Shown here piece after piece: positions 729 to 15,016 of a stretch of 29,947 nt of DNA. How positions within the stretch are numbered: position 1 is the stretch's first letter; every line of letters starts with the position of its first letter. The position numbers and the translations under genes were made by a program. The DNA is from a virus. Location: the UHGV virus genome UHGV-0175251. One strand, 5' to 3'. Under the pieces are notes generated by a model. That model saw only the letters and a program-made list of their open reading frames with translations. It made no database searches and had not been told where the DNA came from.

Positions 729-1277
729 ATGAAGGTTAATAAAAAGAAGCTCGCGGAAATTTTCAACGTGGATCCACGAACGATTGAACGCTGGCAGTCT
801 CAGGGGCTCTCTTGTGTCTCTGGTGGTAGTAAGGGGGTTGAATCTGTATTTGATACCGCCATGGCAATTCAGTGGTATGCGCAGCGCGAAGCCGATATTG
901 AAAACGAAAAACTCCGCAAAGAGACCGAGGATTTGCGTGCGGCTGCGGAATCAGATTTACAACCCGGCACCATTGACTATGAGCGCTACCGACTCACAAA
1001 AGCACAGGCTGATGCACAGGAACTGAAAAATGCCCGCGAAGAAGGGCTGGTACTGGAAACGGAATTGTTTACCTTCATTCTGCAACGTGTGGCACAGGAG
1101 ATTTCGGGGATACTTGTACGTGTGCCGCTGACATTACAGCGTAAATATCCGGATATTTCACCGTCACACCTTGATGTGGTGAAAACTGAAATCGCAAAAG
1201 CCTCCAACGTTGCAGCTAAAGCTGGTGAGAACGTAGGCGGGTGGATTGATGATTTCAGACGCACAGAAGGCAGCTAA
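729..1277 (+). CDS. nu1: terminase small subunit (lambda Nu1 homolog)
   Basis: Translation [26 protein letters not shown]...[29 protein letters not shown] aligns by eye with lambda Nu1 (N-terminal HTH, DLQPGTIEYER motif). ATG at 729; the ORF-track start at 711 is TTG. Overlaps start of A. Confidence 0.9.
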
Positions 1278-3165
1278 TGCAGCCGGTGCGATAGCAACAG
1301 GGCTTGTATCTCTCAATATTCCGGTACCACTGACGACAGTTCAGTGGGCTGATCAGCATTATTATCTGCCAAAAGAGTCTTCATATACTCCCGGGCAATG
1401 GGAAACACTGCCGTTTCAGGTTGCCATCATGAACAGCATGGGGAATGACCGGATCCGCACCGTTAATCTGATTAAATCGGCGCGTGTTGGTTACACCAAA
1501 ATGCTGTTGGGGGTGGAGGCTTATTTTATTGAACACAAATCCCGTAACAGCCTGCTTTTTCAGCCGACAGATTCTGCGGCAGAAGATTTTATGAAATCCC
1601 ATGTCGAACCAACGATAAGAGACGTTCCTGTATTACTGGAGCTGGCTCCGTGGTTTGGCAGAAAACATCGGGACAACACGCTTACCCTGAAACGTTTCTC
1701 CTCCGGTGTGGGATTCTGGTGTCTGGGCGGAGCTGCTGCCAAAAACTACCGTGAAAAATCTGTGGATGTGGTCTGCTATGACGAACTCTCCTCGTTTGAA
1801 CCGGATGTGGAAAAAGAAGGTTCACCAACTCTGCTTGGCGATAAGCGTATCGAAGGTTCGGTATGGCCTAAATCCATACGCGGCTCAACGCCCAAAATTA
1901 AAGGTTTTTGCCAGATTGAAAAAGCCGCGAACGAATCTGCACATTTTATGCGGTTTTATGTGCCATGCCCTCATTGTGGTGAAGCCCAGTATCTGAAGTT
2001 TGGCGATGATGCGACAACCTTTGGCCTGAAATGGGAGAAGGGCAAGCCGGAGACGGTGTATTACCTGTGTGAACATAATGGCTGCGCGATCCGTCAGTCG
2101 GAACTTGACCAGACCGACGGGCGGTGGATTTGTGACAATACCGGGATGTGGACGCGTGACGGTCTGACATTTTACAGCGCCGGTGATGAGGAAATCCCGC
2201 CACCGCGCTCAATCTCGTACCACATCTGGACGGCATACAGCCCGTTCACCACCTGGGTACAGATTGTTTATGACTGGCTTGATGCACTGAAGGATCCGAA
2301 TGGCGTCAAGACGTTCATTAACACCACGCTGGGGGAGCCTTATGAAGAGGCTGTGGCAGAAAAACTGAGCTTTGAGTTATTGCTGGAAAAAGTCTGCCAC
2401 TATGATGCGCAGGTTCCCCTGCGGGTGGTTTACCTGACCGCAGGGATCGACTCTCAGAAAAACCGTTATGAGATTTATGTCTGGGGCTGGGCTCCTGGCG
2501 AAGAAGCTTTTCTGATTGACAAGCAGATCATCATGGGGAGACCGGAAGATGAGGACACCCTTAAACGCGTTGATGCCGTGATCCGGAAAAAATACCGTCA
2601 TGCAGATGGCACTGAAATTTCCATTTCCCGCGTCTGCTGGGATACCGGTGGTATTGACCAGGACATTGTGTATCAGCGATCCAGAAAACACGGCACTTTT
2701 TTTGTGCTCCCCATCAAAGGGGCGTCGGTGTACGGCAAGCCGGTGATCACCATGCCAAAAAAGCGAAACCAGCGTGGGGTGTTTTTGTGTGAGGTGGGTT
2801 CCGATACCGTCAAGGAAATGCTGTATGCGCGTTTTGCCCTGCCGGTGGTATCTGCCAGTGAAGCCGCACCGTATACCTTCCGTTTTCCGGATAACCCGGA
2901 CATTTTTTCTGATGTTGAAGCTAAACAACTCGTGGCAGAAGAGCTGGTTGAAAAAGTTGTGAACGGGCGGGTGAAACTCCAGTGGGATGCCAGAAAACGG
3001 CGTAATGAAGCTCTGGACTGTCTGGTGTATGCCTATGCAGCGCTGCGCATTTCCGTTCAGCGGTGGCAACTGGATCTGGATGCACTGGCCCGCGCCAGAA
3101 GAGATGAACAGGACGACGATGAAATGACTATTGAAGAAATCGCGGCTGCTCTGAGTGGAGGATAA
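1249..3165 (+). CDS. A: terminase large subunit (lambda gpA homolog)
   Basis: 639-aa ORF; [61 protein letters not shown] and [13 protein letters not shown] motifs match lambda gpA. ATG at 1249. Confidence 0.95.
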
Positions 3166-3168
3166 GTG

Positions 3169-3378
3169 ATGATTTATACGCATGAAATGCTATGCGATGC
3201 CCGCCGGGCGTTACATGAACTGATGATCGGACGTGCTGTGGTTTCCGTCAGCAAGGACGGGCGTCAGGTTCAGTATTCGCGGGCGACAATTGGTGAACTG
3301 CGTCAGTATATTGAAGAGCTGGAAAGTGCGCTGGGTGTATCCGGACGGCGTCGTGGCCCGGCAGGAGTGGGGCTGTGA
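3169..3378 (+). CDS. W: head-tail joining protein (lambda gpW homolog)
   Basis: 69 aa ending RRRGPAGVGL, like lambda gpW (ends RRRGPAGFYV). Sits between A and B as in lambda. Confidence 0.85.
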   Translation: MIYTHEMLCDARRALHELMIGRAVVSVSKDGRQVQYSRATIGELRQYIEELESALGVSGRRRGPAGVGL

Positions 3379-4189
3379 ACGGGGAACTGGTGGATATTCA
3401 TGGGCAGCCTTTACGGCAAAGCATGGGATATTCTGGTGGTGGTTCCGGGTTCGGTGGGCAAATGGCAGAATGGCTGCCTGCACCGGAAAGTGCCGACGTG
3501 GCGCTCTTACCTTCCATTCATCTGGGTAACGCCCGCGCGGATGAGCTGGTCCGTAACAACGGTATTGCATCGAATGCAGTGGAAATTCATAAGGATCATA
3601 TTGTCGGGCACATGTTTCGTCTGAGTTACCGTCCCAACTGGCGCTGGCTGGGGATGTCGGAAGCAGATTCACATGCTTTTATTGAAGATGTTGAGGCGGC
3701 GTGGATGGAATACTGCGATCCGGTGTTTGGTACGATGGATGTGGAAGGGCGTCGTTCGTTTACCGAATTTATTCGTGAAGGGGTGGGGGTCCATACGTTT
3801 AACGGTGAAATTTTTGTCCAGCCCGTATGGGATGCGGAATCCACGTCATTATTCCGGACGAAATTCAAAACCATCAGCCCGAAGCGTGTCAGTACACCCG
3901 GTTATGGTACCGGCGATCGTTTTATGCGTGCCGGGGTGGAAATAAACCGACACGGAAAAGCGCTGGCCTACCATGTTCAGGATGATGACTGGCCCGGCTA
4001 CGGTGTCAGTAAATGGACACGAATTACGGCAACACTGCCTTCCGGACGACCGGGAATGATCCATGTGTTTCAGCCACAGGAAGACGGGCAGACCCGCGGG
4101 GCCAACCAGTTTTATTCTGTAATGGAGCGTCTCAAGATGCTCGACACACTGCAGGCCACGCAACTGCAGTCGGCGGTGGTTCGCGCCAT
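3375..4189 (+). CDS. B: portal protein (lambda gpB homolog), 5' segment; gene interrupted by the insertion at 4190
   Basis: GYSGGGSGFGG, GNARADELVRNNG, FNGEIFVQ and HVFQPQEDGQTRGANQFYSVMERLKMLDTLQATQLQSAVVRA match the lambda portal. Homology stops after codon RA at 4187; the frame then reads 17 unrelated codons to a stop at 4241. GTG start overlapping the W stop. Confidence 0.9.
4183..4189. repeat. left junction 7-bp direct repeat GCGCCAT (candidate attL overlap/core)
   Basis: The same 7 bp recurs at 15010-15016, exactly where portal homology stops and resumes. Flanking bases differ on both sides. Confidence 0.7.
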
Positions 4190-4317
4190 TTATGTCTATT
4201 ATCTCCCCGTAGTTGTCGCCACCATTCATCAACTCCACTAAAACCCTTGATATGTCTGGAATGTCGTTTTTTGTATTTATGATGACCGTTCATTACCTTT
4301 CGTGTTTTTCGCGGTTT

Positions 4318-4371
4318 TGTGTATTGCAATGTGTATTGCAAGTTGGCGTTTGGATGGGGTGTGTATTGCAA
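4318..4371. repeat. integrase arm-type repeats (left arm): three copies of TGTGTATTGCAA
   Basis: TGTGTATTGCAA at 4318-4329, 4330-4341 and 4360-4371. The 19-mer GTATTGCAATGTGTATTGC (4321-4339) is identical to 14916-14934 near the other end. Confidence 0.65.
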
Positions 4372-4390
4372 ATTGACGTGTAGGCTACAT

Positions 4391-5632
4391 ATGGCTATCG
4401 AGAATAAACTGACTGACAAACTTCTGAAAAGTCTTGCAGGTAAGCCGCAGGACAGACAAAAAATCATGGCTGATGGGCGGGGGCTATCTGTTCGTGTAAG
4501 CGTGGTTGGGGGAATTAGTTTCGTTTTTTACTATCGTATTGGCGGCAGGGATGCCCCTCCGGTATGGCTGACCCTTGGGCGTTATCCTGATATGTCTCTG
4601 GCAGCCGCCAGGAGATTACGCGACCAGTGCCGTGAATGGCTGGCGGAAAATCTGGATCCTCGCAGACAAATAAAACTTGTAGCTGAAAAAAACATGCGCC
4701 CTGTAACTGTAAGGGATGCGGTGCTTTACTGGTACGATAATCACGCCAGGACAGCCAGAAAGCAGCATGAGTATTTAATAAAAAGATTTGAAAAGCATAT
4801 TTTTCCATATATCGGAGATATGGCTATAGAACAGTGCAAATTGCATACCTGGCTTACTGTATTTGACAGAATTAAAAAAAATGCTCCTGTTATGTCTGGT
4901 GCTATTTTTCTTGATATTAAACAGGCGTTACGTTTTTGCCGTATCAGGCAATACATTAGTTGCGATCCATTCGGTGATATTAACGTTAGTTATGTTGGAC
5001 GTTCAGCAGGCATAAGGGATCGTGTTCTGAGTATTAATGAAGCCGCTGACGTATGGTCTTATGCCTATGGCAACAATTTACTTACCCTTTCATCAATACA
5101 TAACCGAAGAATTATGGTTATCTGCCTGGTGTTTGGTTGCCGTCAGCAGGAGGCGCGGTTATCCACTTGGGAAGAATGGGATTTAAAAAACTGGATTTGG
5201 ACAGTTCCAAAAGAGCACAGCAAGAACGGCGAGGTTATTGTAAGACCAGTCCCTGATGGAATAAAACAATGGGTTATTAATCTTTATGCGGAAACAAAGC
5301 ACCGGGATTGTGTTATCGGTAGATCACTGAAGCGAGCGACAATAACAGGAGCAGCAAGCCGGATATGCAGGCGGCTAGGGCATGATGTAAATGGTCTGTG
5401 GTGCATACATGATTTCAGGCGTACATTTTCAACAATGCTTAACGATATGGGTGCCGATCCTTATATTGTAGAGCTTCTGCTTGGTCATAAAGTTAAAGGT
5501 GTGGCGGGTGTTTATAATAAAAGCAAGCATGCAAAGAAAAAACTTGAGGTTCTTAATATGTGGGTTAATTACCTTAACACGATAGCCGGATTTAATAATA
5601 ACGTTATTGAACTGAGTAAAGAGGTTGTTTGA
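4391..5632 (+). CDS. int: tyrosine site-specific integrase (P4-type)
   Basis: 413 aa from ATG 4391. N-terminal arm-binding-like region (LTDKLLKSL...GRGLSVRVSVVGGISFVFYYRIGGR...LTLGRYPDMSLAAARR) and C-terminal catalytic motifs (HDFRRTF, LLGHK, VAGVYNK with the tyrosine). Confidence 0.9.
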   Translation: MAIENKLTDKLLKSLAGKPQDRQKIMADGRGLSVRVSVVGGISFVFYYRIGGRDAPPVWLTLGRYPDMSLAAARRLRDQCREWLAENLDPRRQIKLVAEKNMRPVTVRDAVLYWYDNHARTARKQHEYLIKRFEKHIFPYIGDMAIEQCKLHTWLTVFDRIKKNAPVMSGAIFLDIKQALRFCRIRQYISCDPFGDINVSYVGRSAGIRDRVLSINEAADVWSYAYGNNLLTLSSIHNRRIMVICLVFGCRQQEARLSTWEEWDLKNWIWTVPKEHSKNGEVIVRPVPDGIKQWVINLYAETKHRDCVIGRSLKRATITGAASRICRRLGHDVNGLWCIHDFRRTFSTMLNDMGADPYIVELLLGHKVKGVAGVYNKSKHAKKKLEVLNMWVNYLNTIAGFNNNVIELSKEVV

Positions 5633-5633
5633 T

Positions 5634-5891
5634 ATGTCAGTTTATTCACTTGTTGATGAAAAAGATTTTACTGCAATGCCGGATATTGATCGTGTCATTC
5701 GTGAAAAAGAATGCGTGGCACTTACTACGCTGGCAAATTCAACACGCTGGAAACTGGAAAAGACAGGTAAGTTCCCAAAACGTATTAAGATTGGTGAACG
5801 TGCCGCTGGCTATCGTCTCTCGGAGATTCAGGCGTGGATCCGTGGCGATTGGCACCCAGGATGGAAACCGGAAAAAACAAAACAGCAATAA
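5634..5891 (+). CDS. alpA: AlpA-family HTH regulator (possible excisionase)
   Basis: 85 aa, 1 nt after the int stop, GAGG SD. LANSTRWKLEKTGKFPKRIKIGERAAGYRLSEIQAWIR resembles the AlpA family. Confidence 0.7.
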   Translation: MSVYSLVDEKDFTAMPDIDRVIREKECVALTTLANSTRWKLEKTGKFPKRIKIGERAAGYRLSEIQAWIRGDWHPGWKPEKTKQQ

Positions 5892-5907
5892 CCAGGAGAT
5901 AAACACA

Positions 5908-5932
5908 GCCCCGCTCAATGCGGGGTTTTTTG
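5908..5932 (+). terminator. rho-independent terminator after alpA
   Basis: GCCCCGC / TCAAT / GCGGGG hairpin followed by TTTTTT. Confidence 0.75.
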
Positions 5933-5950
5933 TATGTGAGGTAAAAAGCG

Positions 5951-6529
5951 ATGAATAAAAATATTGCCGTGACGGGCAAAGGTGACGCTCGTCTAGTAAA
6001 AAAATTCTGTGATATTCGTGATCTGGTCGTTCTGCGCTTTGATGGTGTGAACGTTCGCGTGGTGTATCTGAACGGCGATCCGTGGTTTGTTGCAGTTGAC
6101 GTGTGCGCTGCGCTGGAAATTGTTGATCACAAGGTTGCGTTACGCCGTCTCGATGATGATGAAAAGGGGGAGTGTTTAATACCCACCCTTGGCGGAAATC
6201 AAACAATGCGAACTGTATGCGAGTCAGGTTTCTACAAACTAATAGCCCGTAGCCGCAAAGCAACGACGCCTGGCACGTTCGCCCATCGTTTCAGTAACTG
6301 GGTATTCAGAAATGTGATACCGGGTATCAGAAAAACGGGGGCTTATGGTATCCCGTGGGGCGCATTACAGGATTTTTCCCGCCGTAAAGAGCAATATCAG
6401 ATAAGTGCCAGCGAGAAGGGGAGGGAGCTACAGGCATGTAAGCGCAAAAAGCGTGAGCTGGAGGAAGAAGAAAAAAGGCTGATACGTGAATATCAGCCTG
6501 AGTTTTACTTTGGTGAGCGTATTCAGTAA
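5951..6529 (+). CDS. Bro-N domain protein (antirepressor-like)
   Basis: 192 aa; N-terminus LRFDGVNVRVVYLNGDPWFVAVDVCAALEI has the Bro-N / phage antirepressor signature; C-terminus charged. GAGGT SD before the ATG. Confidence 0.7.
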   Translation: MNKNIAVTGKGDARLVKKFCDIRDLVVLRFDGVNVRVVYLNGDPWFVAVDVCAALEIVDHKVALRRLDDDEKGECLIPTLGGNQTMRTVCESGFYKLIARSRKATTPGTFAHRFSNWVFRNVIPGIRKTGAYGIPWGALQDFSRRKEQYQISASEKGRELQACKRKKRELEEEEKRLIREYQPEFYFGERIQ

Positions 6530-6810
6530 CCACTCGCAGTGCTGATTATACGGTACATCGTGTTAACCGGGAAGCTACCCACCAGCAAGGCAAAATCTTC
6601 TGCTAAAAAATGATATATGGTCAGCCGTCCGGAAAGCATGAAATTTTACAAAAATGGAAAATGAAGATTTTTATTGTGCTGGTGGGTAAAAACAAAAAGC
6701 GCCCCGTTGCCGGAGCGCCTTTGTGAACAATTAACCTACTGCGCAAAAAATGAATCTGAGCAGTGGGATTATATCAACCGTGTGACGAAGCGCCACAATT
6801 GCCGGATAAC

Positions 6811-6842
6811 AGGCAAAACAAAGGCCACCCGCTACGGTGGCC
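6811..6842 (-). terminator. candidate intrinsic terminator for the leftward small-gene operon
   Basis: GGCCACC / CGCTAC / GGTGGCC perfect 7-bp stem; on the minus strand it is followed by TTTGTTTTG. Confidence 0.5.
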
Positions 6843-6960
6843 CTTCAACACAAGCTACACGTTATCCCCAACGCATGAGCATCACCAACAATGCCACATT
6901 TGCGGCTGGTGGGCAAAGCTTTAGCGGAATTTTTTCCCTGTTGCCTGGAGTGGGTAATGA

Positions 6961-7143
6961 TTACTTGTATCGCTTATTCCTGCACAAAACAGGGCTGCTC
7001 TTTTTGATGAAATCCTCAAGCAAAAAACACTCTGTTGATGCTCTTGGTAATTCTCTGGTGGAAGGATGGGGTTTTATCCCCCATTTTCGTTTACGTTCTT
7101 CCAGAAAGGAGGTGAGTATATCTAGTTTCTGTGCGTCCATCAT
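6961..7143 (-). CDS. hypothetical small protein (60 aa)
   Basis: Third ORF in a leftward series with regular 57-bp spacing; weak SD; no recognisable homology. Confidence 0.3.
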   Translation of the reverse strand: MMDAQKLDILTSFLEERKRKWGIKPHPSTRELPRASTECFLLEDFIKKSSPVLCRNKRYK

Positions 7144-7200
7144 TTTTCTCTTGGATACTTCTTTGTGCCATGGATCCTCACACCACGGCGCTGATAGTGG

Positions 7201-7398
7201 TTATTTCTGCTCTTCAACATCACCATGTCGTGATGTTTTCCAGGTATGCGACCCCATTTTTGTGCGCCTGTACTCTTTTAAGAACTTCTCAAGGCCAAAC
7301 GCACATGGCGCGAATCTCTCCTGTTCTTGTTCGCTTACCGCGTTTTTGCGTTGTTTTTTCCTGGATGAAGATAATTTCTTTAATGATTTGTCAGTCAT
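7201..7398 (-). CDS. hypothetical small basic protein (65 aa)
   Basis: Second ORF of the leftward series (MTDKSLKKLSSSRKKQRKNAV...); no recognisable homology. Confidence 0.35.
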   Translation of the reverse strand: MTDKSLKKLSSSRKKQRKNAVSEQEQERFAPCAFGLEKFLKEYRRTKMGSHTWKTSRHGDVEEQK

Positions 7399-7455
7399 CG
7401 TAGATACCTGTAACCCAGTGCGCCACAGTTCACCGCACCACGGCGCTGGTGATGG

Positions 7456-7635
7456 TTACTCCTGCTCTTTGGCCTTGCGACGCTGGCGGCGTTTGATCTC
7501 GCCTTGCATTGACGCAATGATGAATTGTGATGTGCTTTCGCCTGATTCTTTCACTGATTCCATGGCGTTTACTATTTCGTGTGGTACACGAGCCTTTAGA
7601 GCTTGTGATTTTGCGTTTGTTGTACCCGTTGCCAT
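7456..7635 (-). CDS. putative ribbon-helix-helix DNA-binding protein (candidate repressor)
   Basis: 59 aa from ATG at 7635-7633 with GAGG SD. ALKARVPHEIVNAMESVKE...TSQFIIASMQGEI fits a strand-helix-helix pattern. Transcribed divergently from the rightward operon. Confidence 0.5.
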   Translation of the reverse strand: MATGTTNAKSQALKARVPHEIVNAMESVKESGESTSQFIIASMQGEIKRRQRRKAKEQE

Positions 7636-7639
7636 TTCT

Positions 7640-7740
7640 ATTCCTCTGGTGGATTGGTGGGGAACAGTATACACAGAAAAAACACAAATAAAACTCTTGA
7701 CGTGGACCACACCTAAAACATATAGTGGGCCACACCTTAA
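7640..7740. promoter_or_regulatory. divergent promoter/operator region of the element
   Basis: Rightward TTGACG (7697-7702) and TATAGT (7721-7726), 18-bp spacer. Direct repeats TGGACCACACCT (7703-7714) and TGGGCCACACCT (7725-7736) overlap it. Leftward -10 TATACT on the minus strand around 7657-7662 precedes the RHH gene. Confidence 0.55.
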
Positions 7741-7834
7741 AATTATCAAGGCGCATAAATGCAAAGCCCCGCAAGTGTCGTTACCACTCGCAGGGCTTCT
7801 AACCACCAACGATAGAAAGAGTATCGAGGTAGCT

Positions 7835-8038
7835 ATGAGAAATCATACCACACACCCGCAAGGGCGGGACTCGCACAACCTGAATAAATACATCTGGCGT
7901 TTTATCGCCCTGAGCACGGCACAACCGCGCGTGATTACCATCGAGGCCACCAGCGAACAGGAAGCACGCCAGCAATCTCCGGCTGGCTGCGTGATGGTAT
8001 TCGCCGCCCGTATTCGCCAGGAGGTGCGCCATGATTAA
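7835..8038 (+). CDS. hypothetical protein (possibly Icd-like)
   Basis: 67 aa, first gene after the rightward promoter, GAGG SD. KYIWRFIALSTAQP...FAARIRQEVRH resembles Icd-like proteins of P4-type elements from memory only. Confidence 0.45.
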   Translation: MRNHTTHPQGRDSHNLNKYIWRFIALSTAQPRVITIEATSEQEARQQSPAGCVMVFAARIRQEVRHD

Positions 8039-8243
8039 CCTGTCACTTACCGACCTTAACCGCATTCAGTTTCGTGAGAAATTTACCGGGCAGTTGTTGG
8101 TTAATGTGGATAAAGGTCGCGTGGTGTGTAATTACCACCTGCCAGATGAAGCAATTGTCGCAACAAGGGAATCATTACAGGAACTCGCAGAGCGTGCCGG
8201 AATGATTAACGCGAATATTCAGGGGGTGAGACATGTGCAATAA
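8031..8243 (+). CDS. hypothetical protein (70 aa)
   Basis: ATG overlaps the upstream stop (translational coupling); part of the operon. Confidence 0.45.
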   Translation: MINLSLTDLNRIQFREKFTGQLLVNVDKGRVVCNYHLPDEAIVATRESLQELAERAGMINANIQGVRHVQ

Positions 8244-8496
8244 CCCCCGTCCGGACGCAGCCGCCGAAGCTATCAGAACGCTGATGCACGCGCTGATTGA
8301 TATTTCATGCACGGCAGCAACCGCAGAAAAACACATTACCATAGAGCCGGAATATACAGGGGCAATAATCCCGCATTCGCTGGCATACGCACAGCTTACC
8401 GCTGATATGGCACTGAATGAGGCCAAAGCTATCCTGATTGCTGATTGTGAAAATGGGGGGGGGTGGTTATGCGTGATGATCGTTTTAATGCCCTGA
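8233..8496 (+). CDS. hypothetical protein (87 aa)
   Basis: AGGGGG SD; overlaps neighbours; no recognisable homology. Confidence 0.4.
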   Translation: MCNNPRPDAAAEAIRTLMHALIDISCTAATAEKHITIEPEYTGAIIPHSLAYAQLTADMALNEAKAILIADCENGGGWLCVMIVLMP

Positions 8497-8702
8497 AACA
8501 GGAATTTGATGGCGCACCGGAAGATACAGATATTGCGCTGTTATGTGTTGCTGACATGGTAAAAGCTGCATGTTTTTTACTGGAAACCGCCGAACATTCA
8601 GGAACGGGTAGCGATATTCTCAATATTGCGTCGGACTATGCGGAATATGTGGCAGAGACGCGTTACAGAAGTAAATTCCCGGAGGGGGTGAGCCATGCAT
8701 GA
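8469..8702 (+). CDS. hypothetical protein (77 aa)
   Basis: G-rich SD; first in-frame ATG at 8469 (track start 8463 is GTG). Confidence 0.4.
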   Translation: MRDDRFNALKQEFDGAPEDTDIALLCVADMVKAACFLLETAEHSGTGSDILNIASDYAEYVAETRYRSKFPEGVSHA

Positions 8703-8928
8703 TATTTACAATGACACAGTAGACCATGCATACAGCGCACTTGCTTACAGTGAAAACATGCTTGAAATATTGCGCTTATGGCTTGAAACGCTTGGCGATA
8801 ATGAAAGAGATAAACGCAACAGCAATATTGCAACAGCATTAATAACGCTTCTTGAGCCTGTAATAAATGAACTGCAAGAAATAGACATCTTGCACGACAG
8901 ATATAAAGAGCCACACACCGGAGAATAA
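8695..8928 (+). CDS. hypothetical protein (77 aa)
   Basis: GGAGGGGG SD; start overlaps the upstream stop. Confidence 0.45.
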   Translation: MHDIYNDTVDHAYSALAYSENMLEILRLWLETLGDNERDKRNSNIATALITLLEPVINELQEIDILHDRYKEPHTGE

Positions 8929-8933
8929 AAACC

Positions 8934-9233
8934 ATGAAAAAGAAAAATTCTGGCTTTACTGCCAGCGGCCCCGCTCGGCCTGAAATCCGCCCAGGCGATA
9001 TTTTCCGGGATAACTACGGCGGCACGGTAACGATTAAAAGTATTGCCGGACGGTGCGTTACTTACCGCCGTGATGGGTACAGCTACGACTGCGTGATGCC
9101 TGTTTATCAGTTCCGGCGTGATTTTTCGCTGGTACAGGCCACACCACGCAGACAGCCCACCAGCAACGCAAAGGCACGGGCAAATATTCAGAAAATGAAA
9201 AACATGATTAACGCATTCAGGGGTAAAAAATGA
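8934..9233 (+). CDS. hypothetical protein (99 aa)
   Basis: GGAGAA SD; its stop overlaps the start of the replication gene (ATGA). Confidence 0.45.
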   Translation: MKKKNSGFTASGPARPEIRPGDIFRDNYGGTVTIKSIAGRCVTYRRDGYSYDCVMPVYQFRRDFSLVQATPRRQPTSNAKARANIQKMKNMINAFRGKK

Positions 9234-10645
9234 AACTGGCACCGAACTTAAAAAAACAGCCGCACGACAAAATGACCGAAGTCATTATTTTTGCGGGTAG
9301 TGATGCCTGGGCGCACGCGAAACAGTGGCAGGAACAGGACGGGCGACTTGCTGGCGACAACGTGCCGCCTGTATGGCTTGGAGACAACCAGCTTGACGAA
9401 CTGGCAGACCTGAAAATCATCGATGATGGTCGCTATTGTGTCCGGCTGTACAAGGCAGGCCACATCAAGCCGTCAAATATTAATGCCATCGGGCAAAAGC
9501 TGGCGGCGGCAGGTGTACGGGATGCGAATTATTACCCTGAGGGAATGCACAGCCAGAAGCTGGAGAACTGGCACGACTACCTGCAACGGATCCGCGAACA
9601 GGCAGAGCGCGGGGAAATACTTACTGACGAGCAATACAGCCAGCGAAAAACCACACTACCAATGAGCATTGGGTCCGCAGGATACGACACACAGCTTGAT
9701 TATGTCGTTAAGGGCGTGATTCCGGCTAATTCGTTGTGCAGCACATACGGCGCGAGCGGTTCCTATAAATCGTTCCTCGCGTGTTCCTGGGCGTGTCATG
9801 TTGCCACGGGTCGCCACTGGGGAGGCCGCAGGGTGGCGCATGGTTCGGTGATGTATGTTGTCGGTGAAGGGGGTATAGGTGTCCCCCGCCGTATCAAGGC
9901 ATGGGAAATCGTTAATGATGAACGGGTGGAAAATTTGTACCTGGTAAACCGCCCGATTTTTCCGGCTGTCCCGCTTGATGTTGATGAAATGGTTATCGCG
10001 TCCCGCCAGGTTGAACGGGAAACGGGTAAACCGGTACGCATGATTATTCTGGATACGCTGGCGCGTTGCTTTGGTGGTAATGATGAAAATGACGCGCGGG
10101 ATATGGGGGCGTTTATCCGTGGATGTGACGAACTGAAACGACGCACAGGGGCCACGGTGCTGGTGGTTCACCATTCCGGCAAGGATGAAACAAAGGGGGC
10201 ACGTGGTTCCAGTGCATTTCGTGCATCTCTGGACGCTGAATACCGTATTCGCCGTGAAGGTGCGGACAGTGAAGCCCTGGTTATCTCCTGCACCAAAATG
10301 AAGGACGCGGAGGAACTGAAAGAGGCTGCATATGATTTACGCGTGGTGGAGCTTTTTACCGACGCTGACAAGGAGTTAATCACGTCGCTGGTGGTTGTGG
10401 ATAAGCCGCGCCCACCAGTTGAACTGGAGCGCATCGAGGAAGCCGGGAACAAGACGGAGAATCACGCCGCGCTATGGGGCTGTATCCGTTCACGCACACA
10501 GCGCGGCGATAAATGCACTATCCCGTTATTGCGTGATGATATGAAAAAGCTGGGGTATGAGATGAAGCACTTTAGTCGCTGGTTACGCAAGCTGGAAAGT
10601 GACGACGTAATCGCTATTGACGGCGATGATGTTCACCCGATGTAA
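9230..10645 (+). CDS. replication initiator / RepA-like (AAA_25-type) helicase
   Basis: 471 aa. Deviant Walker A GASGSYKS, Walker B-like RMIILDTLARCF and VLVVHHSGKDETKG motif typical of RepA-like RecA-fold helicases. Iterons immediately downstream. Primase activity cannot be judged from sequence alone. Confidence 0.7.
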   Translation: MKLAPNLKKQPHDKMTEVIIFAGSDAWAHAKQWQEQDGRLAGDNVPPVWLGDNQLDELADLKIIDDGRYCVRLYKAGHIKPSNINAIGQKLAAAGVRDANYYPEGMHSQKLENWHDYLQRIREQAERGEILTDEQYSQRKTTLPMSIGSAGYDTQLDYVVKGVIPANSLCSTYGASGSYKSFLACSWACHVATGRHWGGRRVAHGSVMYVVGEGGIGVPRRIKAWEIVNDERVENLYLVNRPIFPAVPLDVDEMVIASRQVERETGKPVRMIILDTLARCFGGNDENDARDMGAFIRGCDELKRRTGATVLVVHHSGKDETKGARGSSAFRASLDAEYRIRREGADSEALVISCTKMKDAEELKEAAYDLRVVELFTDADKELITSLVVVDKPRPPVELERIEEAGNKTENHAALWGCIRSRTQRGDKCTIPLLRDDMKKLGYEMKHFSRWLRKLESDDVIAIDGDDVHPM

Positions 10646-10850
10646 AAAGTGGGGAACAAAAGTGGGGAGAGTGGGGAATTTAACAAAAAATCAACGTTAC
10701 TCCCCACTTTCCCACCTGTATATACCCAAAAAAGTGGGGAGTAAAAAACACATTGAAAAACATCACGTTAGAATCACAAAAAAACGAGGTGGGGAGCAAG
10801 TGGGGAATTTTAAAAAGTGGGGAACAAAAGTGGGGAGTGGTGGGGAATGA
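10646..10850. repeat. iteron array: about 10 copies of GTGGGGA (candidate ori)
   Basis: GTGGGGA at 10649, 10662, 10671, 10734, 10789, 10800, 10817, 10830, 10840 and inverted (TCCCCAC) at 10701, set in A-rich DNA directly after the rep stop. Confidence 0.75.
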
Positions 10851-11098
10851 ACAGAAAAACCAGAGATAAAACAGTGCCAAAATATCGCGCATTAGACATG
10901 ACAGAGCACGCCTTAAAGGTGGCAATCAGAACGATAGACCGCCACGCCGGGGAAGGATACGCGAAAGCACATCCCGAACTGATAAGCGCATTCATGGCCA
11001 CGACGGCGGCAAACTTTGCCACGCTGACAGAACGGGAGATTGCCGAAGCGGAACAGGTGACAACCATCAACGTTAAAACCGGAGAGCAAACAGCATGA
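10847..11098 (+). CDS. hypothetical protein (83 aa)
   Basis: ATG at 10847 at the end of the iterons; overlaps the SSB start. Confidence 0.4.
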   Translation: MNRKTRDKTVPKYRALDMTEHALKVAIRTIDRHAGEGYAKAHPELISAFMATTAANFATLTEREIAEAEQVTTINVKTGEQTA

Positions 11099-11517
11099 CA
11101 GCACAGATAGCGGCTTACGGGCGGCTGGTGGCTGACCCACAGTTAAAGACCACCAGCAAAGGGACACAAATGGCGATGGCGAGTATGGCGGTTCCCCTGC
11201 CGTGCAGCCAAGCAGATGACGGAACGGCGACGATGTGGTTATCCGTCCTGGCGTTTGGCAGACAGGCCGACGCACTGGCAAAACACCACAAAGGCGAACT
11301 GGTGAGCGTGGCGGGTAACATGCAGGTAAGCCAGTGGACAGGCCAGAACGGCGAAACGCGGCAGGGCTGGCAGGTTATCGCAGACAGCGTAATCAGTGCC
11401 AGAACGGCGCGACCGGGCGGCAAAAAAGGCCAGCAGGGCCAGGCTACTGACGCACTGAACAGGGCAAAACAACAGGCGGGAAATGATGATCCGTACTGGG
11501 ATAACATACCGTTTTAA
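11095..11517 (+). CDS. ssb: single-stranded DNA-binding protein
   Basis: 140 aa with OB-fold-like pattern (GRLVADPQL...W.SV.AFG..A..L.KH.KGELVSVAG...W....G..R....V) and an acidic C-terminal tip ...DPYWDNIPF resembling the E. coli SSB DDDIPF tail. Confidence 0.65.
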   Translation: MTAQIAAYGRLVADPQLKTTSKGTQMAMASMAVPLPCSQADDGTATMWLSVLAFGRQADALAKHHKGELVSVAGNMQVSQWTGQNGETRQGWQVIADSVISARTARPGGKKGQQGQATDALNRAKQQAGNDDPYWDNIPF

Positions 11518-11533
11518 GCAACGAGTGACAGAA

Positions 11534-11597
11534 GCCGGGATTTTTCCCGGCTTTTTTGTGCGCAAAAAAAATCCCCCGGGATGAGGTTCCGGGGGAT
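11534..11597. terminator. pair of hairpins: + strand terminator (11534-11558) and a minus-oriented one (11571-11597)
   Basis: GCCGGGA / TTTTT / TCCCGGC then TTTTTT; followed by AAAAAAAA, ATCCCCCGG / 9-nt loop / CCGGGGGAT. Confidence 0.7.
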
Positions 11598-11674
11598 TTC
11601 ACGCCGCTAACGTGATTAGCGCTGAATGACTCTGTGGTACAAGGAGTAAAACCACGGCATCATGATTTCATGAT

Positions 11675-11723
11675 TTGCAACAACAGTCAATGTCATTGCA
11701 AAAAATGCAATGATAATTAAAAT
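11675..11723 (+). promoter_or_regulatory. candidate promoter with overlapping palindromic operator for the capsid module
   Basis: TTGCAA (11696-11701), 16-bp spacer, TAAAAT (11718-11723). Perfect palindrome CATTGCA-AAAAA-TGCAATG (11694-11712) overlaps the -35. Confidence 0.45.
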
Positions 11724-11775
11724 CATGAATGACTTTTCGTTATGTTTATTTTTTAGTCAAAGAGGAATCTCATTT

Positions 11776-11982
11776 ATGGGAACACAGAAGCCGGGCGGTG
11801 TATCCGTGTACATCAGCCCCGATATTATCGCCGCACTTAATGCGCGCTTTGAGGAGAACGCAGAGGCAGGAAAAAAAATCGGCCTTGATCCGTTGTGCCT
11901 GGTGAAGCCGTCAGTCGGCTGGATGGTACGCAGCCATTTACGCGCTGCGCTTGGTATGAATCAGCCTCATGGGGGTGAGTAA
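11776..11982 (+). CDS. hypothetical small protein, possibly ribbon-helix-helix
   Basis: 68 aa, AAGAGG SD. VSVYISPDIIAALNARFEENAEAGKK...WMVRSHLRAAL is compatible with an RHH fold. Stop overlaps the capsid-homolog start. Confidence 0.4.
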   Translation: MGTQKPGGVSVYISPDIIAALNARFEENAEAGKKIGLDPLCLVKPSVGWMVRSHLRAALGMNQPHGGE

Positions 11983-13037
11983 TGACAGCGCCGCAACTGG
12001 TAAGCACACCAACGCTACTGAAAAATATCGGGCGCGAAGATGTGCCGGAATTTAAATTTAATCCACTCTTTACTACGTTGTTCTTTCCGAACGTCGCTAC
12101 TTTCAGCACCAGAGATATTGCACTTGATACGCTGGATATTGAAAACGTGGTCATGAGTCCGTTTTGTTCTCCAATGTCAGGCAGCCAGGTTATGCGTGAC
12201 AAAGGTTTCACAACGAACACGTTCACGCCGGGTTATATGAAGCCCAAACACGTTATTGATCCCACCAAAACAATCATGCGCATGGCTGGAGAACAGATCG
12301 GCAATGGTCAGTCTTCCCCGGCACTACGCCGCGTAAAAATGGTTCACGACAGCCAGAAAAAACAGCTTGCTGCCATCAAAGCGCGTGTTGAATGGCTGGC
12401 GGTCAATGCCATCACAACAGGCCGTAACGTTATTGAAGGCGAAGGCATTGAGCGTTATGAAATTGACTGGGGATTACCCGCAACCAATCATATTACGCAG
12501 GCTGGCGGGAAAGAATGGTCAAAACAGGATGCCGAAACGTTTGATCCGATAAGCGACATTGAGGCTTACGCTGATTTTTCCAAAGGTACGGTAAATATTA
12601 TCGTCATGGGTGGCGAAGCCTGGCGTATTTTGCGCTCGTTCCGTCGATTCCGCGAACTCCTGGACACGCGTCGCGGTTCAAACTCGTCACTTGAACTTGC
12701 GCTAAAAGATTTGGGCGGCGTTGTCAGCTTCAAGGGGTATCTCGGTGATGTGGCGCTCGTGGTTTATTCCGGTCGTTATGACGACGAATACGGGCAGCAG
12801 CAATATTTCCTGAAACAAAACATGCTGGTTTTCGGCAATACCGAAAATAAAGGCCTTGTTGCTTATGGTGCCATCATGGATCAGGACGCGGCACGCGAGG
12901 GGTTTTCTGAGGGGATGTACTACCCGAAAAATTATATCGTACCTGGCGATCCGGCGATTGAATACGTGCAGACGCACAGCGCCCCGCAGCCAGTACCCGT
13001 GGATATTGGTCGCTTTGTTACCGTCGAAGTGAAATAA
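11982..13037 (+). CDS. major capsid protein homolog (lambda gpE-like), element-encoded
   Basis: 351 aa. Shares FTPGY.KPKH, NITQAGG[KR]EWSKQ[DN]A[ED]TFDP, REKLDTRRGS, ALKDLG.VVSFKGY, GNT...G..YGAI.D and YPK motifs with the prophage E protein (17825-18853) and with lambda gpE. Confidence 0.9.
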   Translation: MTAPQLVSTPTLLKNIGREDVPEFKFNPLFTTLFFPNVATFSTRDIALDTLDIENVVMSPFCSPMSGSQVMRDKGFTTNTFTPGYMKPKHVIDPTKTIMRMAGEQIGNGQSSPALRRVKMVHDSQKKQLAAIKARVEWLAVNAITTGRNVIEGEGIERYEIDWGLPATNHITQAGGKEWSKQDAETFDPISDIEAYADFSKGTVNIIVMGGEAWRILRSFRRFRELLDTRRGSNSSLELALKDLGGVVSFKGYLGDVALVVYSGRYDDEYGQQQYFLKQNMLVFGNTENKGLVAYGAIMDQDAAREGFSEGMYYPKNYIVPGDPAIEYVQTHSAPQPVPVDIGRFVTVEVK

Positions 13038-13047
13038 AGGGGATCGT

Positions 13048-13377
13048 ATGCCAACACCTTACACGCAATTCCTTTCCGGCACGCAGGAACTGGTCAGCAC
13101 GCTGGCCTGTTTTGCCAGTGCCGGAGAAATTAAAGCGAGAACTCCGCTGATGCAGAACGGCGCGGGCCTGATGGTTGAGTGGGACGGTACACCCGGTAAG
13201 GCGGTGTATCTGACCATATCGGACATTAACACGGCCACAAAAAACCGCGCACAGGTTTATAAGTGCGGGGTTTTTAATATCGATGAAATTAACTGGCCTG
13301 ATACAGCGGACACGTTCGAGAAAAAAGTGTCGGCTTTTGTTGGTTCCGGTATTTCCGTGCAGCCTTTAGGGCAATAA
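13048..13377 (+). CDS. head decoration protein homolog (lambda gpD-like), element-encoded
   Basis: 109 aa directly after the capsid homolog. TPLM, WDG and AFVGSGIS motifs shared with the prophage D (17420-17755). Confidence 0.7.
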   Translation: MPTPYTQFLSGTQELVSTLACFASAGEIKARTPLMQNGAGLMVEWDGTPGKAVYLTISDINTATKNRAQVYKCGVFNIDEINWPDTADTFEKKVSAFVGSGISVQPLGQ

Positions 13378-13391
13378 TTTTGTGGTGATTT

Positions 13392-13817
13392 ATGACTGAG
13401 AAAGCAAATTCAACCAGAGCATTGATCATGGCACTGCCTGAGGCGCAGAAATACCCGACGCTTGCGGAAAATCTCGCAAATAATGGCGCATCACTGACAG
13501 AAGCCCGAACGGTGCTTACTGCAAAGGCTGAGAGTGATAAACAGCGCATAGAGGGTATCAAGGCGTTACCGCTGGCATCAAAATACCCTGAGTTCACCAG
13601 TAAGCTGATTGAGTGTGGTTCTGAAGTAATGACAGTAACCTATGCACAAACGTTACTGGCTGCCGTGGATGCCCAGGCAATGATGCAGGAAAAGAAAACG
13701 GCTTTTCTGTTTGAAGCGTACATGGAAAAGCACAGCCCGAAATGTGTTGGATCAGCAGCCGGTGATGGCAACGCCGGACTGACCGAAGATGAAAAGCTGT
13801 TGCTGTCTGTTAAGTAA
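13392..13817 (+). CDS. scaffold-like protein (Nu3-like repeats), element-encoded
   Basis: 141 aa. Two repeat-like units (ALPEAQKYPTLAENL..., ALPLASKYPEFTSKL...) and C-terminus TAFLFEAYMEKH...GDGNAGLTEDEKLL resemble the repeat unit and C-terminus of the prophage C/Nu3 (...VTLFERFMAQH...GTAGNGEEELL). Confidence 0.6.
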   Translation: MTEKANSTRALIMALPEAQKYPTLAENLANNGASLTEARTVLTAKAESDKQRIEGIKALPLASKYPEFTSKLIECGSEVMTVTYAQTLLAAVDAQAMMQEKKTAFLFEAYMEKHSPKCVGSAAGDGNAGLTEDEKLLLSVK

Positions 13818-13830
13818 CTGAAATGAACGT

Positions 13831-13863
13831 TCGCGAGGCTGGCAAGGTCTCGCGATTTTTTTT
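13831..13863 (+). terminator. rho-independent terminator after the capsid module
   Basis: TCGCGAG / 11-nt loop / CTCGCGA followed by eight Ts. Confidence 0.8.
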
Positions 13864-13896
13864 GTATCCGTAACGGTGGTGATCGCCCCAATTTTC

Positions 13897-13975
13897 ACGG
13901 GTCCTTTCCAGAACCAGAAACACCGCGGGGCGGCAGACGCGCAAAAAAGCGCTATTTATGACGCTTTCCGGGAAA
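13897..13975 (+). promoter_or_regulatory. element-borne cos site
   Basis: ACGGGTCCTTTCC (13897-13909), GGGGCGGCAG (13927-13936) and GCTATTTATGA (13951-13961) reproduce the prophage cos motifs at 509/540/564 with nearly identical spacing (30 vs 31 and 24 vs 24 nt). Flanking sequence differs. Confidence 0.75.
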
Positions 13976-14028
13976 GGGTACACCACCACCACTTGATTAA
14001 TATTTAATCGCATTATTAAGGTAACGTT

Positions 14029-14469
14029 ATGAATAATAAAGATTGTTTTGTTAGTCAGCAGGAAATAGCAGAACATTTCAAGGTCAACAGAACCACTATT
14101 CGCGCATGGACCAAACAGGGCATGCCGTATCTTGATGCGGATCGCGGAAAGTCCGGCGGTTATCACATCGGACACACATTATTCTGGTGCATGGGTAAAA
14201 GTCATCTTGATGCTATTGAGTACCACGGAGAAACCAGCGCACTGGAAAAGATTATGGTTGCCAGGTTGATTTCATTAGAGCGCGACGAGTATTTCAGTGA
14301 AGAAACAGAACAGCGATTTGATAATGGTCTGCAGATTTACGGGTACTCGCCGGAAGATGTGAGCAAGGCACGAAATAAAATGGCTGGCTTTCTGGCTGGG
14401 TGGCGTCATGCCGTAGCCGTTCGCCGTGAGCATCTGCAACAATCTGTAGTTACAGAGCAGGAAAACTAA
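14029..14469 (+). CDS. small terminase-like protein (Nu1-like N-terminal HTH)
   Basis: 146 aa just downstream of the element cos. N-terminus VSQQEIAEHFKVNRTTIRAWTKQGMPYLDADRGKSGG parallels Nu1 ([24 protein letters not shown]...GGSKG). The C-terminal half is unrelated to Nu1. Confidence 0.65.
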   Translation: MNNKDCFVSQQEIAEHFKVNRTTIRAWTKQGMPYLDADRGKSGGYHIGHTLFWCMGKSHLDAIEYHGETSALEKIMVARLISLERDEYFSEETEQRFDNGLQIYGYSPEDVSKARNKMAGFLAGWRHAVAVRREHLQQSVVTEQEN

Positions 14470-14476
14470 TAAGTAT

Positions 14477-14573
14477 GCAATACAACAACCGCGTATTTTT
14501 GTTAAACCATTTGATTTAATTGGCATTTTTGGAGCCATAACATCAAAAAAACACCCTCAGGTTGTTGTATTGC
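14477..14573. repeat. 14-bp perfect inverted repeat GCAATACAACAACC / GGTTGTTGTATTGC separated by 69 bp
   Basis: 14477-14490 and 14560-14573; contains the GTATTGC motif also present in the arm-type repeats. Confidence 0.5.
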
Positions 14574-14751
14574 TTTCAGTTTTCTCTTAGTTATCAAATG
14601 GATATAACAAACAATTAAACAACAACCACCCCCTCAAAAAATCTCATAAACAGCGCGTTTTTGCGCGTATGGCTACCCCCGGTGTTTTATTTTCCAGGAA
14701 GGACCCGCCACAATTACGGCATTGTTTTCCATCACCACGGAGGCCATGACA

Positions 14752-14937
14752 ATGACCGAAGCCGAAATGCTCAAAATGATTCGCCGCGTTACCGGATCCA
14801 GCAAGACAGCAGGCAAACAGGAGACCACGCAGCCGGACAGCGTGATAGCCGAAAATTACGCGCGTGTGGTGGCTGAGGTGATGCGCCGTGACGGTATTCA
14901 CAAGCAACAATTTGCGTATTGCAATGTGTATTGCTAA
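14752..14937 (+). CDS. hypothetical small protein (about 61 aa)
   Basis: GGAGG SD at 14739-14743; the 3' end runs into the arm-type repeats. Coding status uncertain. Confidence 0.3.
   Translation: MTEAEMLKMIRRVTGSSKTAGKQETTQPDSVIAENYARVVAEVMRRDGIHKQQFAYCNVYC
14913..14936. repeat. integrase arm-type repeats (right arm)
   Basis: TGCGTATTGCAA + TGTGTATTGCTA; the 19-mer GTATTGCAATGTGTATTGC at 14916-14934 is identical to 4321-4339. Confidence 0.65.
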
Positions 14938-15009
14938 CCCTCCAAACGGGGGAAATATGCAAACATAACATATTGTTTTGTCTTTTTATTTTTTCGTATC
15001 TTTTCATAA

Positions 15010-15016
15010 GCGCCAT
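15010..15016. repeat. right junction 7-bp direct repeat GCGCCAT (candidate attR overlap/core)
   Basis: Identical to 4183-4189; portal homology resumes exactly here. Confidence 0.7.

Follow-up and report, generated by a model that had tools for sequence, protein, structure and literature searches.

Gram-negative phage-inducible chromosomal islands (PICIs) have been described as driven by an activator, AlpA, and the founding paper did not find a global repressor (PMC6092414). What, then, keeps such a satellite silent? The question arises for a stretch of 29,947 nucleotides of the UHGV virus genome UHGV-0175251 (hereafter the window), which contains, within positions 6,811 to 8,038, a pair of divergent promoters, one serving a small leftward gene and the other heading a rightward replication operon. 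The leftward gene encodes a 59-aa protein of the YlcI/YnfO family with a predicted ribbon-helix-helix (RHH) fold. Judging from comparison of sequences, this protein is probably an autoregulated repressor of the early/replication promoter of the satellite that acts at three GTG-N5-CAC operators and belongs, together with them, to exchangeable specificity cassettes. The parts of the switch lie in the window as follows.

7456–7635, minus strand: gene of the 59-aa YlcI/YnfO-family protein, a predicted RHH repressor (MATGTTNAKSQALKARVPHEIV...EIKRRQRRKAKEQE)
7641–7647, minus strand: ribosome binding site AGAGGAA of the RHH gene
7657–7667, unstranded: operator O3, GTGGGGAACAG, lying over the final 2 nt of the leftward -10 and over the leftward start site predicted near 7659–7661
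7666–7671, minus strand: leftward -10 TATACT, without a recognisable -35, with a T-rich tract upstream
7697–7702, plus strand: rightward -35 TTGACG, from the consensus scan
7702–7712, unstranded: operator O1, GTGGACCACAC, occupying the spacer between -35 and -10 of the rightward promoter
7721–7726, plus strand: rightward -10 TATAGT, from the consensus scan
7725–7735, unstranded: operator O2, GTGGGCCACAC, lying over the final 2 nt of the rightward -10 and over the start site predicted at about 7732–7734

An earlier note on this DNA, made from the letters alone, had proposed back-to-back promoters within about 70 bp, and the two -10 hexamers are indeed about 60 bp apart. The rightward promoter that it read as TTGACG/TATAGT was recovered at 7697–7726: with an 18-nt spacer, it agrees with the consensus at 10 of 12 positions and is the sole sigma-70-type match in 6400–8300. 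A scan of one genome per species provided 78 homologous loci from more than 25 genera of Enterobacterales, in nearly all of which TTGA is kept at offset 61, and a Ta.t block is conserved 17 nt past the -35. The leftward promoter postulated for the RHH gene is likewise backed by conservation, as the block CAGTATAC, whose complement contains the -10 TATACT, is found at offset 29–36 from the start codon in nearly all homologous loci. The complement of the ribosome binding site (ctcct) also corresponds to a conserved block in an alignment of class representatives.

Furthermore, the earlier note had seen two copies of a repeat, TGG[AG]CCACACCT, overlapping the rightward promoter. Both copies are real: the window contains the motif at 7703 and 7726 and nowhere else, and the repeated unit extends to 22 nt with 82% identity, the copies being 23 bp apart. 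However, the actual operator unit is the 11-bp GTG-N5-CAC, and a third, weaker copy was missed. This site, O3, lies on the leftward -10 and ends in CAG instead of CAC; it is degenerate in this element, with four mismatches to O1.

Comparison of the homologous loci revealed a fixed layout in the 200 bp upstream of the RHH gene. In the orientation of the window, the ribosome binding site is followed by a site at offset 21 that runs into CAGTATAC, then by an A-rich tract, TTGA at offset 61, a second site placed directly after TTGA, the Ta.t block, and a third site, direct or inverted, located 22–25 or 35 bp past the second. In other specificity classes, O2 is inverted, lies 35 bp from O1, or both. 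The 64 cleanly parsed loci used to compare operators with the predicted beta strand of the protein all have three sites at fixed offsets. In about 64 of 73 loci, O3 is present at offset 21 from the start codon and shares its N5 core with the O1 and O2 beside it. The outer trinucleotides of the operators, GTG and CAC, are invariant, and the N5 core varies from locus to locus but is common to the three sites within a locus, with a mean mismatch of 0.62 of 5 positions within a locus versus 3.40 between loci with different beta strands. The beta-strand residues 9–17 of the protein form 26 distinct strings in the 64 loci, and loci with the same string have the same or a near-identical core, as in the following examples.

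Residues 9–17 KSQALKARV or KSQSLKSRV: N5 core G[A/G]CCA
Residues 9–17 KSKKLEARV: N5 core GCTGA
Residues 9–17 KSQMTTVRI: N5 core TAT[T/G]T
Residues 9–17 KSQQLNARF: N5 core CGATT
Residues 9–17 RSLQVSVRL: N5 core GTGTT

Distances between cores correlated with distances between beta strands in a Mantel test (r = 0.29, p = 4e-4) and not with distances between the flanking intergenic DNA (r = 0.05, p = 0.25), and mutual information with the core peaked at residues 12, 14 and 13. Residues 11–15 predicted the operator class with an area under the curve of 0.96, compared to a weak 0.70 for AlpA identity. In 35 pairs of loci, AlpA is at least 80% identical and the operators differ; conversely, in 24 pairs, AlpA is less than 45% identical and the operators are identical. 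The earlier note had suggested that the switch possibly responds to the Bro-N or AlpA proteins or to a helper signal. Since the operators track the RHH protein and not AlpA, any response of the switch to AlpA or to a helper signal would more likely come from transcription entering from upstream than from binding at the repeats.

The link between protein and operator also held out of sample. For an Escherichia coli protein (P0032) whose strand reads KSKKLEARV, the core GCTGA was predicted from the protein sequence only, and all three sites of its locus proved to be GTGGCTGACA(C/G). For a Siccibacter protein (P0047), the core GGAGT and an inverted O2 were predicted in the same way, and both were confirmed at O1 and O2. 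The E. coli case also amounts to a swap made by nature: between the E. coli locus L082 (CP028739, 1090–1680; class GCTGA) and positions 7456–8040 of the window, the flanks are 94–96% identical and a cassette of about 250 bp is only 62–76% identical. In L082, this cassette comprises the N-terminal half of the gene and extends through the operators to the first hairpin of the leader of the rightward operon. These observations support the view that the repeats behave as the operators of the RHH protein.

The distribution of classes among co-resident elements points in the same direction. Nine genomes carry two to five such loci, among them Yersinia pekkanenii (L027, L038, L043 and L070) and Xenorhabdus innexi (L013, L047, L054 and L062), and in each of the 24 same-genome pairs the two classes differ. 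Shuffling within genera gave a mean of 4.8 same-class pairs, and zero shared pairs in only 0.06% of the shuffles. Such a pattern of co-residence is the one expected of immunity groups.

The fold predicted for the protein is compatible with this role and agrees with the RHH-like label that the earlier note had given it. The protein belongs to NCBIfam NF041551 (YlcI/YnfO), with 67.4 bits against a cut-off of 30 (E = 7.9e-19, residues 9–50). An AlphaFold (AF2) model of the monomer, built from an alignment of 33 sequences, reached a predicted local distance difference test score of 89.5 and shows an extended segment at residues 6–17 followed by helices at 19–28 and 35–58, that is, the order beta strand, helix A, helix B of the RHH (MetJ/Arc) superfamily. 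In the turn between the helices, where the superfamily has Gly-x-Ser/Thr/Asn, the sequence reads S31-G32-E33-S34-T35, with E33 invariant, and the strand alternates as expected, S10, the variable positions 12 and 14, and R16 versus L13, A15 and V17 falling on M7, Q9, N11 and R13 versus F10, L12 and W14 of Arc. Gln9, Asn11 and Arg13 are the residues with which Arc contacts bases. In an hhalign comparison, residues 9–32 aligned with Arc 6–29, which places the variable residues 12 and 14 on Gln9 and Asn11, and the invariant Arg16 on Arg13. Pfam returned nothing relevant for the sequence of the window on its own; members of the family gave weak matches to RHH families, namely CB_ParB_C, PSK_trans_fac, Arc, HicB_lk_antitox and RHH_5. 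A tblastn search with the protein against 50,697 phage records revealed no homologue. We conclude that the 59-aa protein is predicted to adopt an RHH-like fold.

Two other features of the gene deserve mention. The C-terminal stretch EIKRRQR(R/K), residues 46–52 (7456–7500, minus strand), is invariant in all specificity classes and resembles arginine-rich RNA-binding motifs. Because this tail and a hairpin of the rightward leader are both invariant, a second activity of the protein at the RNA level is conceivable, and we regard it as possible from the sequences. Separately, GTGTACCACAC lies inside the gene (7580–7590, minus strand) over the codons Arg-Val-Pro-His; it is inverted and one mismatch away from O1. 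Conservation of the RVPH codons probably accounts for it, although it could serve as an extra site in this specificity class.

The identity of the operon controlled by the rightward promoter is clear from its gene content. Its leader, its first gene and the open frame in which they lie are listed below.

7766–7796, plus strand: leader hairpin 1, 9 pairs in RNAalifold over 30 loci, most of them compensatory
7798–7806, plus strand: conserved single-stranded UCUAACCAC, invariant, between the two leader hairpins
7810–7830, plus strand: leader hairpin 2 (7810–7826) and Shine-Dalgarno GAGG (7827–7830) of the Icd-like gene
7835–8038, plus strand: 67-aa Icd-like gene, homologue of P4 kil, first of the rightward (replication) operon (NF033153, E = 1.4e-19)
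6664–8035, plus strand: stop-free frame of 1371 nt, in phase with the Bro-N open reading frame (ORF) and the Icd-like gene

The start codon of the Icd-like gene is at 7835, and not at 7836 as given in the earlier note. Small ORFs follow this gene, then the replication genes, and we detected no further promoter before the replication genes in 7700–8300. An Icd/kil-like ORF occupies this position in 40 of the 78 loci, and in 26 loci the first rightward ORF has a match to P4 kil. The Icd/kil-like protein of the window also has matches in phrog_6196 and phrog_1743, which are annotated as 'transcriptional repressor', probably after an old 'cI gene product' annotation of the P4 ORF. Immunity in P4 being now ascribed to an RNA, the label would be misleading if it was so derived.

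The leader of about 100 nt is conserved across all operator and specificity classes. Its two hairpins show compensatory changes in 9 of the 13 pairs predicted with RNAalifold over 30 loci, and the single-sequence fold has a z score of -2.6. No Rfam family matched it: neither C4, isrK nor another credible family appeared at gathering scores or at E ≤ 10 in 6400–8100. The best Rfam hit on the leader, the R1162 antisense RNA, reached 21.7 bits against a gathering score of 55.

The stop-free frame lies antisense to all three leftward ORFs and also crosses both promoters. In the model Gram-negative PICI, EcCICFT073, one ORF of 428 aa, starting 53 nt past alpA, fills the corresponding region (L001, 8760–10046). 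Among distinct homologous intergenic regions, 52 of 63 keep one frame stop-free over about 190 nt, compared to a mean of 4–5 stops in the frames out of phase with the start codon, which was assigned heuristically, so that in some loci the stop-free frame differs from that of the assigned ATG. The arrangement resembles that of P4, the kil/Icd-like gene being the first past the early promoter and apparently nested in phase in a longer putative frame.

As for the genomic setting of the switch, the window represents the late region of a lambda-like prophage, with a gpA-type large terminase (1246–3165) upstream of a portal gene of the lambda family that is split in two: 3375–4241 corresponds to positions 2–242 of the Pfam profile and 14919–15773 to positions 235–353, which places the insertion point near profile position 235–242, with an S49 protease downstream. 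The insert covers about 4242–14918. It also carries genes for a single-stranded DNA-binding protein and an E-type capsid protein, in addition to the satellite genes listed here, all of which are rightward.

4319–5632, plus strand: tyrosine integrase (int)
5625–5891, plus strand: alpA, activator gene of Gram-negative PICIs (Pfam Phage_AlpA, E = 3.8e-15)
5951–6529, plus strand: Bro-N gene
9230–10645, plus strand: AAA_25 replication protein (initiator)

Thus int and alpA are located at the upstream end, co-oriented with the replication genes, and the satellite sits inside a late gene of the prophage and has the same orientation as that gene. Helper-embedded PICIs (HE-PICIs) have a doubled repeat motif, TGTATTGC, near their ends (PMC10111431). 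In the window, a doubled motif, TGTATTGCaatgTGTATTGC, was found at both ends of the insert, at 4320 (4320–4339) and 14915 (14915–14934), where shuffles expect 0.03; it reads TGTATTGCAATGTGTATTGC at 4320 and carries one mismatch at 14915. On these grounds the element is a helper-embedded PICI, in the configuration of Tommasini et al. (PMC10111431), inserted in a portal gene of the lambda family. The 1.6-kb region around the switch has matches in 1,672 of 5,426 complete E. coli genomes; EcCICFT073, with the same module at about 92% identity, is among them. The alpA gene lies upstream of the RHH gene and convergent with it, an arrangement of int and alpA that recurs in 48 of the 78 loci. A Bro-N match was present in the flank of only 7 of the 78.

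Downstream of the RHH gene, the leftward unit continues through two short ORFs to a terminator.

7201–7398, minus strand: 65-aa ORF downstream of the RHH gene (phrog_21027), with a related 62-aa ORF in EcCICFT073
6961–7143, minus strand: 60-aa ORF without a family match, last of the leftward unit in this element
6820–6845, minus strand: intrinsic terminator ending the leftward unit, 10-bp stem with 6 GC pairs and a T-run

The 65-aa ORF, for which the 78 loci of other species gave no homologue, is a variable accessory gene, and neither of the two short ORFs is conserved in other genera. No ORF family is conserved downstream of the RHH gene across the 78 loci, and a terminator-like hairpin lies within 130 nt of the RHH stop codon in 35 of 76 loci. 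The 65-aa ORF and the RHH gene are each followed, past the stop codon, by a 57-nt spacer (7144–7214 and 7399–7469). The two spacers are copies of each other with 76% identity; each starts with TAACCA and holds a hairpin of the CACCAGCGCCGTGGTG type. All three leftward ORFs share one reading phase. Together, the spacer copies and the common phase suggest modular duplication or insertion of small-gene cassettes. TAACCAC-type sequences occur after leftward stop codons (7188–7203 and 7443–7458), after the Bro-N stop (6526–6543) and in the leader (7780–7797). They were considered as P4-like seqA/B/C pairing partners and rejected, the leftward RNAs having the same sense as the leader. A candidate small RNA of about 80 nt was also noticed at 6688–6780 (minus strand), with an extended -10, TGATATAAT (about 6772–6780), two hairpins and a strong terminator at 6722–6695. 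Its minimum free energy is -32.3 kcal/mol (z = -4.8), its sequence is also present in EcCICFT073, and it had no Rfam match. Pairing of this RNA (6768–6688, minus strand) with the conserved leader amounted to only about 5 bp by eye and was dropped.

The sequences show the anatomy of the switch, the predicted fold, the co-variation, the cassette swap and the identity of the target operon. Beyond this, we infer that the RHH protein itself binds the sites, that it represses rather than activates, and that one dimer occupies each site. Bound at O1, in the spacer, and at O2, on the start site, the protein would shut the rightward promoter and hold off the kil/Icd-like gene and the replication genes. 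Bound at O3, over its own -10 and start site, it would limit its own synthesis; with three operators including O3, autoregulation is probable. Residues 12 and 14 of the beta strand would read the N5 core, leaving the outer G/C bases, themselves invariant, to the invariant Arg16. Exchange by recombination of the cassette of about 250 bp, with the N-terminal half of the gene and the operators, could then generate many specificity (immunity) classes that are blind to each other.

How the switch is induced is more speculative. Induction might bypass the repressor rather than inactivate it, by transcription that enters from upstream along the stop-free frame, antisense to the repressor gene. Such read-through might start at an AlpA-activated alpA promoter or, in an embedded element, in the late operon of the helper, whose transcription 'should propagate passively' into the satellite (PMC10111431). 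It would oppose expression of the repressor and reach the replication genes, like PLL/eta transcription in P4. Induction of EcCICFT073 requires AlpA, and over-expressing AlpA is enough to bring it about (PMC6092414). The earlier note's view of this region as a control point of the element is supported by the co-varying operators, by two confirmed predictions and by a promoter that heads kil/Icd-like and replication genes. A wider reading is that YlcI/YnfO-like RHH proteins are the master repressor and the determinant of immunity so far lacking in Gram-negative PICIs, EcCICFT073 among them, and in related int-alpA satellites across Enterobacterales, with some 20 or more exchangeable cassettes that make co-resident satellites blind to each other and with bypass by translated read-through from an AlpA-dependent or helper late promoter; this we advance tentatively, as a possibility that may well prove too broad.

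Several observations weigh against the RHH protein as repressor of this switch, or against parts of that proposal. The rightward consensus match is within chance, with one found against 2.3 expected in shuffles, and the consensus scan found no minus-strand promoter, the leftward -10 having no -35. O3 is degenerate in EcCICFT073 as it is in the window, and autoregulation may therefore be weak here. On the protein side, the hhalign probability to Arc is only 20%, a Foldseek search of the PDB with the model gave no match, phmmer and profile searches of PDB sequences gave none either, and the model is that of a monomer. The core distance correlates with the rest of the protein as well (r = 0.30), so that linkage contributes, and the partial Mantel correlation for the beta strand is weaker (r = 0.19, p = 0.006). 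The co-residence statistic is possibly biased, since identical repeats become merged in draft assemblies. Simple translated read-through fits awkwardly with the stop codons in frame between Bro-N and the long frame (6527–6663) and with a terminator-like site at 7063–7087 (plus strand). Finally, since over-expression of AlpA alone induces EcCICFT073, the action of the RHH protein can be overridden, and the protein is perhaps not the decisive regulator.

This last point leads to an alternative that we consider unlikely, in which the protein binds the sites as a local, autoregulated damper on a toxic kil/Icd-like gene, and AlpA and the helper decide induction. The requirement for AlpA and its sufficiency in EcCICFT073 (PMC6092414), the description of P4 kil as a cell-killing function (PMC10111431) and the degenerate O3 of E. 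coli elements would all fit a damper. However, the same promoter also heads the replication genes, no other promoter being detected before them in 7700–8300, and the strong diversification into classes never common to co-resident elements is expected of immunity and not of toxin damping. The repeats could also be sites for AlpA, Bro-N or the arm domain of the integrase, the small ORF being incidental. AlpA/Xis-type proteins and integrase arm domains bind direct repeats. AlpA activates PICI genes (PMC6092414), and the ends of HE-PICIs bear their doubled motif (PMC10111431). Nevertheless, the operator class is uncoupled from AlpA in the 35 and 24 pairs of loci described above, the operators occupy the spacer and the start sites of core promoters, places suited to repression, the arm motif is found at 4320 and 14915 and not at the switch, and Bro-N is matched in only 7 of the 78 loci. 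This explanation is very improbable.

Two further explanations fared worse. If the RHH protein were a type II antitoxin paired with a downstream small ORF, for instance the 65-aa one, the repeats would be the autoregulatory operator of the pair. We give this little credence: the unconserved accessory ORFs and the hairpins after the RHH gene argue against a toxin-antitoxin pair, no adjacent toxin being conserved in the 78 loci, and two of the three sites are on the divergent promoter rather than on that of the gene itself. Short repeats beside replication genes are typical of origins, and P4 has annotated origin repeats, which might suggest iterons for the initiator of the element. Yet the window, with an AAA_25 initiator, and EcCICFT073, with a primase of the P4 family, have unrelated replication proteins and the same operator class, which argues that the sites are not iterons. 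There are, besides, only three copies, placed exactly on promoter elements, and the origin of EcCICFT073 was mapped with the rep gene, downstream of that gene (PMC6092414, PMC10111431). An origin at this place is therefore extremely improbable. Repression by the RHH protein remains our preferred account of the locus.

Gram-negative PICIs are widespread, and they move virulence and defence genes. If the RHH protein acts as proposed, a small repressor with predictable operators would explain the silence of these islands, which could then be sorted into immunity groups from sequence, and the uncharacterised YlcI/YnfO (DUF3950) family would gain a function. The classes would also form a natural set of orthogonal pairs of a 59-aa repressor and an 11-bp operator, with a readable link between residues and bases, useful for studies of RHH recognition and for synthetic circuits. 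Furthermore, PICIs would be linked mechanistically to P4, with the same kil/eta scaffold and protein immunity replacing RNA immunity.

Known systems resemble this switch in part. The proteins after which its family is named, YlcI (in DLP12) and YnfO (in Qin) of E. coli K-12, belong to the same NCBIfam family, and K-12 YlcI reads as RHH-type (RNIRFPNQMIEQI...GSGNFSAWVIEA). However, their genes lie beside cos/nohD in late regions of lambdoid prophages and are not divergent from a kil-like gene, and neither a GTG-N5-CAC triplet nor a CAGTATAC block is evident upstream of ylcI or ynfO in K-12. ylcI is transcribed, with ybcW and ylcI overlapping convergently (PMC12288877); the locus was considered as a route to published transcription starts and put aside for its cos/nohD context and the lack of a comparable operator layout. 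The literature, with subscription journals thinly covered, offered neither a function for YlcI, YnfO or DUF3950 nor an RHH repressor of Gram-negative PICIs.

In Gram-positive PICIs, the Staphylococcus aureus pathogenicity islands (SaPIs), the leftward gene of the master repressor Stl/Rpr, with divergent stl-str promoters, likewise faces away from the excision/replication operon that it silences (PMC6092414). In contrast with the 59-aa RHH protein, Stl is larger, with no relationship detected between the two, and is released when it binds a protein of the helper phage. In the present system, int and alpA have the orientation of the replication operon, AlpA-dependent activation exists, and nothing points to an anti-repressor. 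The immI region of P22, with Arc and Mnt at the divergent Pant and Pmnt, differs by its two repressors instead of one, by a single 21-bp operator bound by a tetramer instead of three separated 11-bp sites, and by its target, an antirepressor rather than a replication operon. No family relationship was detectable, Pfam Arc matching one family member only (E = 0.012).

The likeness to P4 goes further. In the early control region of P4, PLL is followed by vis and then by eta/kil, with PLE as internal promoter. An AlpA-type gene (vis), an early promoter, a kil/Icd-like first gene of about 65 aa and the replication genes follow each other in the same order, and TATAGT is found at the corresponding place upstream of P4 kil. 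The Icd-like domain forms the C-terminus of the P4 ORF 8584–8168, which contains kil, with E = 7.8e-21 compared to 1.4e-19 in the window. Both have a longer open frame that begins ahead of the promoter and holds the small gene in phase: in P4, kil lies inside eta, whose start precedes the early promoter, and translation of eta from the upstream late promoter prevents termination (PMC10111431). The two systems differ in their immunity. In P4, this is the CI RNA, with seqA and seqC in a leader of about 325 nt; here, the leader has about 100 nt, and no C4/isrK immunity RNA was matched at the gathering score in the window or at E ≤ 10 in 6400–8100. The paper on HE-PICIs discusses only RNA immunity in this zone (PMC10111431). 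Instead, the switch has a gene for a putative protein repressor, antisense inside the long frame, and three operators; P4 has no such gene. If the broader role of these proteins in Gram-negative PICIs is true, they would be the protein-based counterpart of P4 RNA immunity and of its PLL/eta bypass. The type of device, an RHH repressor with operators on divergent promoters, is classical; what appears to be new, against the papers covered, is the protein family, its role in these satellites, the co-evolving cassette with three sites, and its antisense placement in a P4-type eta/kil frame, where it would replace RNA immunity.

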